DNA from: Escherichia phage VB-EcoM-WM
Length of the DNA stretch: 64,000 nucleotides
Sequence record: PQ014731.1
Strand: one strand, 5' to 3'
The notes under the pieces were generated by a model that searched no databases, was not told where the DNA came from, and saw only the letters and a program-made list of their open reading frames with translations. Shown in pieces: positions 41,043 through 41,690 of the stretch. Positions within the stretch are counted from its first letter, which is position 1, and the number at the start of each line of letters is the position of its first letter. The position numbers were made by a program, and so were the translations under genes.

Positions 41043-41393
41043 ATGAAAGAGGAGGATAAGCTGCCATACCTTAAAGTCCCATTTGGAATACTGTCTATGT
41101 CAAAAGTTTTGAATGATACAACTGGAGAGGTTGTTGTTCTTGACTTGTATGACAAGATCGTATACTGCTACCTGCACAACTGGTATAAGCTTGGAGGAAG
41201 TTCACGCTTCACACCCAGCACAAGGAAAATTGCCGCAGATGTTGGGATAAAGAAAACAAAAGCAGCAGCGTGCGTTAAAACTTTAGAATGTGCAGGAGTG
41301 GTTGAAATATCCACACAAGGGAGAGGTAAAAGATGCACATTTTCCAAAGTTTTGCCACCAGAAGAAGTTATTCGGATGTCAACAACTGGTTAG
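41043..41393 (+). CDS. putative winged-helix DNA-binding protein
   Basis: HTH-like segment STRKIAADVGIKKTKAAACVKTLECAGVV; immediately upstream of palindrome array. Confidence 0.4.
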   Translation: MKEEDKLPYLKVPFGILSMSKVLNDTTGEVVVLDLYDKIVYCYLHNWYKLGGSSRFTPSTRKIAADVGIKKTKAAACVKTLECAGVVEISTQGRGKRCTFSKVLPPEEVIRMSTTG

Positions 41394-41465
41394 ACCAGTA
41401 AAAACTTAAATATCTGTACTATAAGGATTTGTATGTTTTATGTTCACTTTAGGGCTGAGATTATT

Positions 41466-41550
41466 AACTGTCCGTGAGACGGACACTACTGTCCGCCACG
41501 CGGACACATCTGCCCGTAATACGGACACTAACTGTCCGCAATACGGACAC
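41466..41550. promoter_or_regulatory. array of four phased palindromic sites (operator/iteron-like)
   Basis: GTCCGT-gag-ACGGAC, GTCCGC-cac-GCGGAC, GCCCGT-aat-ACGGAC, GTCCGC-aat-ACGGAC; centres at about 41476, 41497, 41518, 41540. Confidence 0.6.
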
Positions 41551-41690
41551 ATAAAGAATATAACTAAAATAACTAAATAATAAAAAATAAAAGATCTAGT
41601 ACTTATGGTACTAAAGTACATATACTTAACTTATGTAGAATATACTAGATCCTAAGTACCATGTTTTAAATTTATTACTTACTATTGATA
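41551..41690. repeat. AT-rich region with inverted repeats (possible origin/DNA unwinding element)
   Basis: Very AT-rich; palindrome TAGTAC-ttatg-GTACTA and AGATCTAGTA...TACTAGATC inverted repeat. Confidence 0.4.

Follow-up and report, generated by a model that had tools for sequence, protein, structure and literature searches.

The, or at any rate a, replication origin of Vequintavirus is probably the short stretch just beyond a gene for a 116-aa winged-helix protein, where four phased dyad repeats adjoin a 140-bp AT-rich tract, an arrangement built like the origins of lambda and of RepA_N replicons. On what the sequence offers, the probability of this is put at about 0.65. The window, i.e., the whole 64,000-nucleotide (64-kb) stretch of DNA analysed, comes from one of these rV5-like phages, virulent myophages with genomes of ~137 kb. 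They have been isolated widely, have both therapeutic and typing uses, and include members of the BASEL reference collection. Where their replication originates was expressly left undefined (PMC3606486), and literature searches on a vequintavirus origin or transcriptome, on DUF6945 and on TGTCCG iterons found nothing relevant. The initial annotation of the window had named an origin with iterons, a centromere-like partition site and a cooperative operator array as alternatives. The first is now favoured, on the homology of the adjacent protein to an initiator, a palindrome unique to the locus, a minimum of duplex stability and the presence of arrays of the same iteron inside initiator genes elsewhere, to which are to be added the anatomy of the locus and its conservation.

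Four phased dyads beside an AT-rich tract

Repeat and palindrome scans place the array, four direct repeats of 21 or 22 bp, at 41465..41550. The four 15-bp palindromes seen at the outset are there as described (41470-41484, 41491-41505, 41512-41526 with one mismatch, GCCCG, and 41534-41548), as is their 21-22-bp phasing, successive repeats starting 21, 21 and 22 bp apart. The symmetry extends beyond 15 bp to a 17-bp dyad, TGTCCG-N5-CGGACA, at 41469-41485, 41490-41506, 41511-41527 (the TGCCCG variant) and 41533-41549. From centre to centre the two half-sites of a dyad are separated by 11 bp, and neighbouring dyads by two helical turns. At least three direct repeats in regular helical phase, with an AT-rich element adjoining them, are what characterizes iteron-type theta origins, and the 6-bp inverted arms within each 21/22-bp unit give these repeats the semi-palindromic character of those bound by RepA_N initiators. 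The central N5 is variable, and is not poly-A. By chance, 0.45 matches to the palindrome are expected in the window and none of 100 shuffles reached five; the sole match elsewhere in the window is a lone one-mismatch site at 8089. In the complete 136-kb genome of a relative, a genome-wide scan found sites with at most one mismatch in the array only (four, with 0.1 in shuffles). Among relatives the number of iterons varies in register, being three (V18), four (most) or six (typing phage 14).

How well is this conserved? In a comparison of nine relatives, the proportion of variable columns is 0.02 for the half-sites (1/48) and 0.048 for the AT core, against 0.29-0.32 for third codon positions, and 4/20 positions vary in the central N5 of the dyads. 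Beside a 70%-identical orthologue of the protein the palindrome is kept and the spacer has diverged. The stop codon of the gene is followed by a conserved segment (41394..41444, 7/51 columns varying), in which there is a minus-strand promoter-like match at 41446-41418, and then, immediately left of the array, by a hypervariable 20-bp spacer (41445..41464, 14/20 columns varying among nine phages). A second short hypervariable block (41677..41689, 9/13 columns varying) marks the right-hand edge of the AT tract.

As a single strand the array forms consecutive hairpins, far better than shuffles do (z = -6.99), and it is probably transcribed from the promoter upstream of the gene. Might the palindromes then be tandem hairpins in a read-through transcript, there for processing, antitermination or protein binding? 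This is very improbable. The stems are invariant and the loop or centre variable, with no compensatory changes, and the fixed T-to-C change in the third copy would break a base pair, not compensate for one. Neither are there U-runs after the hairpins, nor an Rfam family match beyond chance level in 41380-42070, and the 21-22-bp period is that of two turns of duplex DNA.

In the ~140-bp AT-rich stretch that had been pointed out, 41551..41690, A+T reaches 80.7%, where the window as a whole averages 57.1% (sd 4.4). Whether 60, 100 or 140 bp are considered, no stretch of the window is richer in A+T or thermodynamically less stable, and the complete 136-kb relative genome likewise has its most AT-rich and least stable duplex here. 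The tract is a candidate DNA-unwinding element. Its core, 41551-41676, is nearly invariant, with 6/126 columns varying. The inverted repeats said to be within it exist, among them one with perfect 9-bp arms, GATCTAGTA (41593-41601) and TACTAGATC (41643-41651), which has two GATC sites in it, but they bring no folding excess; cruciforms were considered and rejected, as folding is no better than that of shuffles (z = -0.56, -1.08).

Could the 116-aa protein instead be a transcription factor, and the array a cooperative operator for four of its dimers on one face? A phage-specific promoter in the AT tract would then be repressed or activated, or read-through blocked, so timing expression of gp77, the tRNAs and the late genes, in likeness to phi29 p4 at its multi-site early/late switch. 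That protein is a small dimeric DNA-binding protein with several inverted-repeat sites, on which it forms a nucleoprotein complex on bent DNA. The location of the array, where a long rightward transcription unit begins, is in keeping with such a role. However, for phi29 p4 the sites lie on either side of well-defined early and late promoters, and no promoter was detected at the vequintavirus array. The promoter scan yielded no sigma-70-like promoter on either strand of 41447-42416, though phage-specific promoters may escape it, and the locus is without the late-promoter motif proposed for rV5. The pattern by which a transcriptional regulator with an operator array would be recognized, a promoter overlapped or flanked by the sites that control it, was not found; the sites are downstream of the gene, whose own promoter is without them, and 140 bp of invariant, genome-extreme AT tract exceeds the needs of a promoter. 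Together with what is described below of the protein and the palindrome, this makes an operator array unlikely.

What lies beyond the AT tract? Abutting it is a G+C-rich hairpin (41696..41739; DNA fold -15.1 kcal/mol, z = -2.87) with invariant stems, the changes being in the loops alone. It is in a conserved G+C-rich non-coding region (41691..42054, + strand) whose membership of the origin is uncertain and which, as RNA, folds weakly better than shuffles (z = -2.07, -1.65). The 'ORF78' of the rV5 and BASEL annotation was rejected as a gene, as it shows no codon-position bias (variable sites 10/10/9). There follows the gene for a 192-aa protein, rV5 gp77 of PHROG 12226 (42055..42633, + strand), which, like the 116-aa protein, is found in Vequintavirus only. 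It has no similarity to any PDB chain. It may perhaps be a partner of the 116-aa protein.

The 116-aa protein and its relatives

The gene for an HTH protein, already called in the initial annotation, is confirmed as an ORF at 41043..41393 (+ strand) encoding 116 aa, and is rV5 ORF79. The array is adjacent to it and not inside it, with the gene ending 76 bp upstream, and adjacency of initiator gene and iterons is a feature of origins of this type. A sigma-70-like promoter identified by the promoter scan, TTGACA-18-TATTTT with TG upstream (40979..41008, + strand), precedes the gene, and the same position is annotated as P76 in rV5 DQ832317. No terminator-like site was found between the gene and the array, and so transcripts from this promoter would cross the repeats and the AT tract.

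In its product the N-terminal, iteron-binding domain of PLE RepA has a homologue that stands alone. Its profile matches PDB 4RO3 with E=3.8e-8 over residues 8-102, and a single-sequence search gives E=9.2e-6. In the reverse direction, tblastn with 4RO3 of 50,697 phage genomes returned only ICP1 Odn, the vequintavirus protein (reciprocal E about 3e-4) and two Pseudomonas phages. The fold matches that of the PLE RepA N-terminal domain, the hits being RepA_N-like or generic winged helix; a single-sequence AF2 model was unusable (pLDDT 39). What 4RO3 represents is the N-terminal domain of a dimeric RepA_N-type initiator, which binds the semi-palindromic iterons of the PLE origin, as established by EMSA and deletion, and the replication that it drives depends on ICP1 infection (PMC7145576). 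ICP1, with which PLE RepA works, has a DNA polymerase that ranks with the nearest homologues of that of rV5 (PMC3606486). Among RepA_N initiators (PLE RepA and the RepA proteins of the staphylococcal pSK41 and pTZ2162), it is the PLE RepA N-terminal domain that is the closest relative in both sequence and fold. However, these initiators have a host-specific C-terminal domain and serve a satellite or plasmid, whereas the vequintavirus protein is an N-terminal DNA-binding domain only, without the two-domain structure of RepA_N proteins, and is encoded by a 137-kb virulent myophage.

With DUF6945 (PF22182) the protein scores 24.9 bits, the gathering cut-off being 28 bits; its 70% orthologue P0014 scores 30.5, phiPMW gp115 42.6 and the 4RO3 fragment 84. 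Neither Pfam RepA_N (PF06970) nor, at E<=0.1, Phage_rep_O is matched. Weak PHROG matches are to phrog_270, phrog_8102 and phrog_428, 'replication initiation protein'. On the other side, and favouring an operator, are the winged-helix fold, sub-threshold Pfam matches to LexA, CodY, TrmB and MarR-type domains, and the usual GenBank label, which is 'putative transcriptional regulator'. phiPMW weighs both ways: that its DUF6945 protein gp115 adjoins three semi-palindromic repeats, GGACA-AAA-TGTCC, speaks for an origin, and that these repeats are just upstream of an annotated phage-specific promoter speaks for an operator. Nevertheless, the vequintavirus protein belongs to a family of replication initiators, unlike phi29 p4.

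The distribution of the protein is restricted to Vequintavirus. A protein-seeded scan of IMG/VR gave no relatives, and word-indexed protein searches yielded close orthologues and P0012-P0015 only; a plasmid search gave a single entry, a phage genome catalogued among the plasmids, and a search of RefSeq E. coli returned nothing. In the sister genera Henunavirus and Seunavirus the module is absent at the corresponding phosphoesterase locus, and so is not a universal part of the replication of the subfamily.

Nucleases, too, make use of the DUF6945 domain, simply for targeting (ICP1 Odn and P0012). In ICP1 Odn the same DUF6945, or RepA N-terminal-domain-like, module recognizes origin iterons and is fused to a nuclease of the GIY-YIG superfamily, with destruction of a foreign origin as the outcome. 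The 116-aa protein has no nuclease domain and, unlike Odn, has cognate-looking sites in its own genome. Still, might it be an origin-derived regulator or competitor, a dominant-negative counterpart of Odn that occupies iterons without firing the origin? By so doing it would throttle its own phage's initiation or block a co-resident phage, prophage or satellite replicon that uses the same iteron. The lack of any C-terminal domain, the recruitment of DUF6945 for anti-replicon targeting in Odn and the occurrence of the iteron in many unrelated replicons are all in its favour, and its absence from the sister genera examined makes the module look accessory. However, the phage keeps a perfectly conserved array and AT tract of its own beside the gene, which argues for function in cis, and sites like those of the array are found nowhere else in the phage genome, as judged from the complete relative. 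Moreover, the scans found no E. coli element with the TGTCCG-N5-CGGACA iteron, the matches being from other taxa. A regulator or competitor of this sort is improbable.

The same palindrome in other replicons

Exact-pattern scans for arrays of TGTCCG-N5-CGGACA with 20-25-bp phasing revealed 55 loci (L019-L073) on unrelated viral and bacterial contigs, a few of which came from more than one collection. At 29 of the 55 a long ORF spans the array. Eight such ORFs from viral contigs were translated and inspected, and all of them continue in frame from an N-terminal winged helix straight into the array. Fourteen of the array-spanning ORFs match phrog_270, four phrog_8102 and four phrog_428, all 'replication initiation protein' and the same three families that the 116-aa protein weakly matches; the remainder, where labelled, belong to O-like, DnaD-like or primosomal families. 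In their N-terminal domains these array-bearing initiators resemble the 116-aa protein only remotely (hhalign probability 50-73%). Some two-site pairs of the palindrome sit in non-phage bacterial contexts.

The O-like or 'replication initiation protein' genes of uncultured phages and prophages (PHROGs 270, 8102, 428, 391 and 345) have the identical 17-bp dyad in the same 20-25-bp phasing, and at several of these loci the array is followed by short direct repeats or a small AT-rich patch. They occur in hosts that are GC-rich or from other, unrelated taxa, and their products, of 284-421 aa, run in frame through the array and have a C-terminal domain, features that the 116-aa protein does not share. 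Is the initiator of Vequintavirus split, with gp77 or the G+C-rich region as the missing C-terminal domain? This found no support, there being no blastp, tblastn, phmmer or PDB match, but C-terminal domains are very diverse among the array-bearing initiators, and a relationship could escape such a comparison.

That arrays of the same palindrome lie inside replication-initiator genes counts against an operator array, and equally against a pac site or partition-type centromere to which the small protein encoded next to it would bind. In favour of these one would cite that the phased repeats make up a unique cis site, that the genome is circularly permuted and that the terminase genes are ~4-5 kb downstream. 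However, in fold and sequence the protein is RepA_N-like and not a small terminase subunit or ParB. The flanking ORFs scanned (a kinase, a phosphoesterase and others without a match) provided no Pfam match to a partition ATPase or ParB, neither of which is annotated in relatives, nor is it evident why a strictly lytic phage would need partition. Packaging or partition is hardly to be expected of the locus.

Known origins are closer. In lambda there are four iterons, and in Stx phages six, all of them imperfect inverted repeats to which the initiator binds as a dimer; the AT-rich tract beside them is unwound, and the DNA-binding domain of O is N-terminal (PMC7466680). The vequintavirus locus likewise has four (3-6) 17-bp dyads, an AT tract and a winged-helix protein, and its 3/4/6 variation parallels the difference between lambda and Stx phages. 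There are two departures from related origins, an initiator that is a DNA-binding domain only and iterons that are beyond the gene. The lambda origin is inside the O gene, whereas in Vequintavirus 76 bp separate the end of the gene from the iterons, and the C-terminal domain of O recruits P-DnaB, whereas the vequintavirus protein is the binding domain alone. It is thus without the marks of the lambda O family, namely the Phage_rep_O profile, an origin inside the gene and a C-terminal P-binding domain. The AT tract of the lambda origin is roughly 40 bp, against 140 bp in Vequintavirus, and Vequintavirus, unlike lambda, brings its own gp4-like primase-helicase.

How the proposed origin would open, and what it would mean

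How would such an origin fire? Dimers of the 116-aa protein would bind the four dyad-symmetric iterons and, as half-sites are one turn apart and sites two, all the dimers would be on one DNA face. The nucleoprotein complex would destabilize the adjoining 140-bp AT tract, the opening of which would be aided by negative supercoiling and by read-through transcription from the upstream promoter. Onto the melted strands a phage helicase would then load, either the T7-gp4-like primase-helicase or the SF1B helicase, or both. rV5 encodes each of them (PMC3606486).

Several considerations weigh against an origin. Replisome recruitment by lambda O and RepA_N proteins is ascribed to a C-terminal domain that the 116-aa protein lacks, its DUF6945 score is below the cut-off, the DUF6945 domain is used in nucleases, and similarity of the protein to the array-bearing initiators is remote. 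The module is missing in the sister genera checked, and two-site pairs of the palindrome occur outside phages. In addition, there is the matter of skew. The initial annotation had noted that the locus is just after the major strand switch, and the position stands: strand switch and GC-skew sign change are at ~39.9-40.0 kb, 1.5 kb upstream, and in the complete 136-kb relative genome the global minimum of cumulative GC skew is 1.5 kb from the locus. However, its diagnostic value does not, as skew tracks transcription direction in these phages, and because of this confounding GC skew was rejected as independent evidence for an origin.

A more specific form of the origin reading, though a tentative one that is rather doubtful as yet, is of a minimal two-piece origin of lambda type, in which a stand-alone iteron-binding domain opens an unusually long, sequence-invariant unwinding element of 140 bp and the helicase loads itself. 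With self-loading by the T7-like primase-helicase or SF1B helicase no loader would be needed. As part of this, the 17-bp dyad may be an iteron common, across phyla, to very divergent initiators, and sites of initiation or nicking might be marked by the two hypervariable blocks on either side of the conserved core.

A candidate origin and initiator for Vequintavirus would be an aid to phage engineering, to marker-frequency analysis and to work on replication control. An initiator that is a binding domain only raises the question of how a helicase is loaded without an adaptor domain. One iteron sequence that recurs in unrelated replicons is also a simple probe for origins in metagenomic phage contigs. 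Finally, to judge from the link to PLE RepA and ICP1 Odn, phages may provide a pool of origin-binding domains from which both the initiators of satellites and the phage nucleases directed against these initiators are drawn.

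The repeat array and its surroundings

By megablast, positions 40300-43000 match 119 phage records at 90-99% identity, almost all of them from Escherichia phages in Vequintavirus (the genus of rV5, FV3 and their relatives, ~137 kb). What concerns us here is a gene-free gap of 661 bp, between the counterpart of rV5 ORF79 (41043-41393), whose product is a 116-aa winged-helix protein, on the left and ORF77 (42055-42633) on the right; a few GenBank records annotate a 'repeat_region' there without explanation. The four palindromes of the initial annotation are where it placed them, and its 21-22 bp spacing is borne out. 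They form four 22-nt direct repeats (41465-41550) at intervals of 21, 21 and 22 bp. GTCCG-N5-CGGAC with at most one mismatch is present five times in the window versus 0.45 expected, four of the five being within 80 bp at the array and the other a lone one-mismatch site at 8089. The full dyad, TGTCCG-N5-CGGACA, is of 17 bp, and copy 3 has TGCCCG as a fixed variant; its half-sites have their centres 11 bp apart, and neighbouring sites are two helical turns apart. As a whole-genome control the complete close relative EI-SP-GF (OR992645.1, 136,204 bp) was assembled, and there the 17-bp dyad, one mismatch allowed, is found at just four places, every one of them within the array, versus 0.1 in shuffles, while two-mismatch sites are at chance frequency.

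Next to the array, and also in the gap, is the ~140-bp very AT-rich stretch anticipated earlier, at 41551-41690 (140 bp; 80.7% A+T, where the window averages 57.1%, sd 4.4). It is the least stable duplex of the window at 60, 100 and 140 bp, and its equivalent in EI-SP-GF is the genome-wide minimum at all three scales. The further inverted repeats ascribed to it do exist but have no folding energy above that of shuffled controls, and are of little evidential weight.

How well is all this kept? Variable columns were counted in the intergenic region aligned from nine vequintaviruses, for which the yardstick is the two flanking genes, with variable fractions of 0.29-0.32 at third codon positions and 0.06-0.10 at first and second. 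One of 48 columns varies in the iteron half-sites, 4/20 in the central N5 and 6/126 in the AT core (41551-41676). These conserved elements are flanked by hypervariable blocks, 41445-41464 (14/20 columns) and 41677-41689 (9/13), at more than twice the third-codon rate in the nine phages. Copy number varies in register: three in V18, four in most and six in O157 typing phage 14. In a metagenomic orthologue with 70% protein identity (P0014, locus L009) the spacer has diverged, and TGTCCG-N5-CGGACA is kept at equal distance past the stop codon, the contig ending within the second repeat. That the repeats act as RNA hairpins, the least likely of four rival readings, is contradicted not only by stems being invariant while the centres vary, but also by the fixed change in copy 3, which breaks a base pair.

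Abutting the AT tract is a conserved G+C-rich non-coding region (41691-42054) with a strong hairpin at 41696-41739; no Rfam family matches it, and the 56-aa 'ORF78' annotated within it in rV5 and BASEL genomes has no codon-position bias and so is probably no gene. A second gene-free gap, of ~340 bp (43152-43495), is upstream of a gp74-like gene; in it, at 43439-43467, is a sigma-70-like promoter close to consensus (TTGACA-17-TAAAAT with TG). Downstream again, a tRNA-Pro gene that is intact in relatives, e.g., phage magaca, is split at 44667-45088 (5′ part 44667-44690, 3′ part 45043-45088) by a 352-bp insert with an HNH endonuclease ORF (44701-45042). The insert takes the place of 7 nt in the anticodon stem, and ARAGORN calls no tRNA-Pro anywhere in the window. 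At 44400-44498 is an unusual tRNA-like gene of 99 nt, 'tRNA-OTHER' in phage magaca, which is given a 4-base anticodon by ARAGORN and scores 37.5 bits with the Rfam tRNA model. The terminase region has a group I intron at 46925-47149 (Rfam 92.7 bits); rV5 terminase-gene introns have already been reported (PMC3606486).

Some database labels also deserve mention. Eighteen GenBank records (MG0656xx) named 'Campylobacter phage', with C. jejuni as host, share 94-96% identity with E. coli vequintaviruses over the locus, and their host labels look doubtful. The 116-aa gene has no match in RefSeq complete E. coli genomes; it is present at 93% identity in a PLSDB 'non-mobilizable E. coli plasmid' from pooled cattle faeces (CP057073.1, hit H261), whose length, 137,565 bp, is that of a complete vequintavirus genome.

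A stand-alone initiator-type domain

The variable fraction of the 116-aa ORF is 0.077, 0.085 and 0.316 at the successive codon positions, i.e., purifying selection, which argues that this short protein is functional rather than a decaying fragment. Its Pfam matches are all sub-threshold (DUF6945, 24.9 bits with a cut-off of 28; HTH_36, 21.4 bits). In PHROGs it belongs to phrog_12838, "replication initiation protein", and weakly matches phrog_8102, 428 and 270, which are likewise labelled; the RefSeq product name is already the same, and likely derives from the PHROG label. Close relatives are confined to Vequintavirus, and exhaustive search adds the distant P0012 (GIY-YIG plus DUF6945) and P0013. 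Decisive here is a profile of the family and these relatives, which matches PDB 4RO3 over almost the full length (E=3.8e-8); the single sequence matches it at E=9.2e-6. In reverse, a tblastn search of 50,697 phage genomes with 4RO3 yields only ICP1 Odn, two Pseudomonas phages and every vequintavirus homologue of ORF79. The 4RO3 sequence itself scores 84 bits on DUF6945, which indicates that the Pfam family is this very domain.

4RO3 comes from the RepA of PLE, a Vibrio cholerae satellite, and is its N-terminal, DNA-binding domain. This RepA is a dimeric initiator, RepA_N-type by structure, and in EMSA binds the semi-palindromic iterons of the PLE origin; PLE replication needs both RepA and the iterons (Barth et al., PMC7145576). 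The 116-aa protein consists of the N-terminal domain only, and so differs from canonical, two-domain RepA_N proteins; nor does it belong to the lambda O family, as it has no match to that profile and the candidate origin is outside its gene. The most fitting description seems to be that of a free-standing iteron binder of the DUF6945 (PLE RepA N-terminal-domain-like) kind, whose origin lies outside the gene. A DUF6945 domain can serve as a mere targeting device, as in ICP1 Odn (PMC8263062) and likewise P0012. A dominant-negative origin blocker, second in likelihood among the rivals, is imaginable, but would not account for an array and AT tract conserved in cis. The distant homologues P0013 and P0015 (loci L010 and L011) have C-terminal extensions with acidic ends, ...EENPPF and ...DDDPDCPF, a tail absent from the 116-aa protein. 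These ends recall the SSB C-terminal tip, and might recruit replication proteins.

The dyad in other genomes

Two adjacent perfect dyad sites (24 specified bases) were sought in three collections, giving 8 loci in IMG/VR viral contigs, 11 in species-representative genomes and 36 in metagenome contigs, a few contigs having come from more than one collection; by our own estimate far fewer than one match is expected by chance. A handful are vequintaviruses; the bulk are unrelated contigs, 39-73% in G+C, that have 2-7 sites at 20-25 bp spacing. The array falls within a long ORF in 29 loci, and in the eight such ORFs from viral contigs that were translated the reading frame runs through the array, which follows immediately on an N-terminal winged-helix domain and precedes a C-terminal one. 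In PHROGs, 14 of the 29 match phrog_270 "replication initiation protein" (best E=2.7e-41), four phrog_8102 (best E=6e-36) and four phrog_428, the same three families weakly matched by the 116-aa protein; further matches are to several "replication initiation O-like", "DnaD-like helicase loader" and "primosomal protein" families. No regulator-, terminase- or partition-labelled PHROG is among the matches of the 29, and a pac or partition site, third among the rivals, lacks any supporting protein. In a Treponema example (L030), Pfam HTH_36 is matched above threshold, and hhalign gives a probability of 73% to the 116-aa family; other array-bearing N-terminal domains align to it over the helix-turn-helix core only. 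In several array-bearing genes the array is immediately followed by a small AT-rich patch or by short direct repeats. A gene-internal origin layout has been described for RepA_N plasmids. It is also that of lambda O (PMC7466680), and the array-bearing initiator genes share it.

A further DUF6945 gene, gp115 of Pseudomonas phage phiPMW (L018), adjoins three semi-palindromic 21-nt repeats containing GGACA-AAA-TGTCC (GATGGTGGACAAAATGTCCTA; L018 2337-2413, just upstream of it). With its divergent strand switch, RNA ligase and kinase genes beside and tRNAs downstream, the layout is much like that of the window. Bacterial intergenic DNA that is not of phage origin also has perfect TGTCCG-N5-CGGACA pairs (L064, L066, L072 and L038, the last near the start of a 543-aa gene, primase-polymerase-like by eye, with an AT-rich flank). 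The dyad is thus not exclusive to O-like initiator genes, and not every instance is an origin.

The most likely rival is an operator array. Phage-specific promoters are conceivable at the locus, but the reading is weakened by the sites being downstream of the 116-aa gene, by the AT tract and the DNA downstream of it having no sigma-70-like promoter, and by the motif elsewhere having an initiator-gene context.

A candidate iteron origin

Unique phased dyads, an extreme AT tract, an adjacent initiator-domain homologue under selection and the same iteron in initiator genes elsewhere make a candidate iteron origin the most likely reading of the locus. The site does lie just after the major strand switch, as first annotated: the divergent switch, with a GC-skew sign change, is at ~39.93-39.97 kb, 1.5 kb left of the gap. 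Cumulative skew in EI-SP-GF has its global minimum 1.5 kb upstream of the locus but coincident with the transcription switch. Since every skew change in rV5, whose origin was left undefined, tracks transcription direction (Kropinski et al., PMC3606486), skew is compatible with an origin here without being diagnostic.

In the mechanism we envisage, dimers of the 116-aa protein would occupy the four sites on one helix face, and the bound complex would pass stress to the AT tract, leading to melting. No terminator-like site separates a promoter at 40979-41008 from the array, and its transcripts, which would therefore run through the locus, may assist. The phage replisome could then load, with its family A polymerase, T7-gp4-like primase-helicase and PIF1/RecD-type SF1B helicase. 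As gp4-type helicases can load onto single-stranded DNA without a loader, a recruiting C-terminal domain would be dispensable. rV5 encodes all three components, ICP1's polymerase being among the closest homologues of its own (PMC3606486), and the SF1B-type helicase of ICP1 is required for PLE replication (Barth et al., PMC7145576). In function the candidate locus may be likened both to ori-lambda and to RepA_N origins. We found no description in the literature of the shared TGTCCG-N5-CGGACA iteron or of a vequintavirus replication origin. The module is absent at the corresponding phosphoesterase locus in the Henunavirus and Seunavirus genomes examined, which points to a genus-specific acquisition; phages of those two genera would then have to initiate replication differently.
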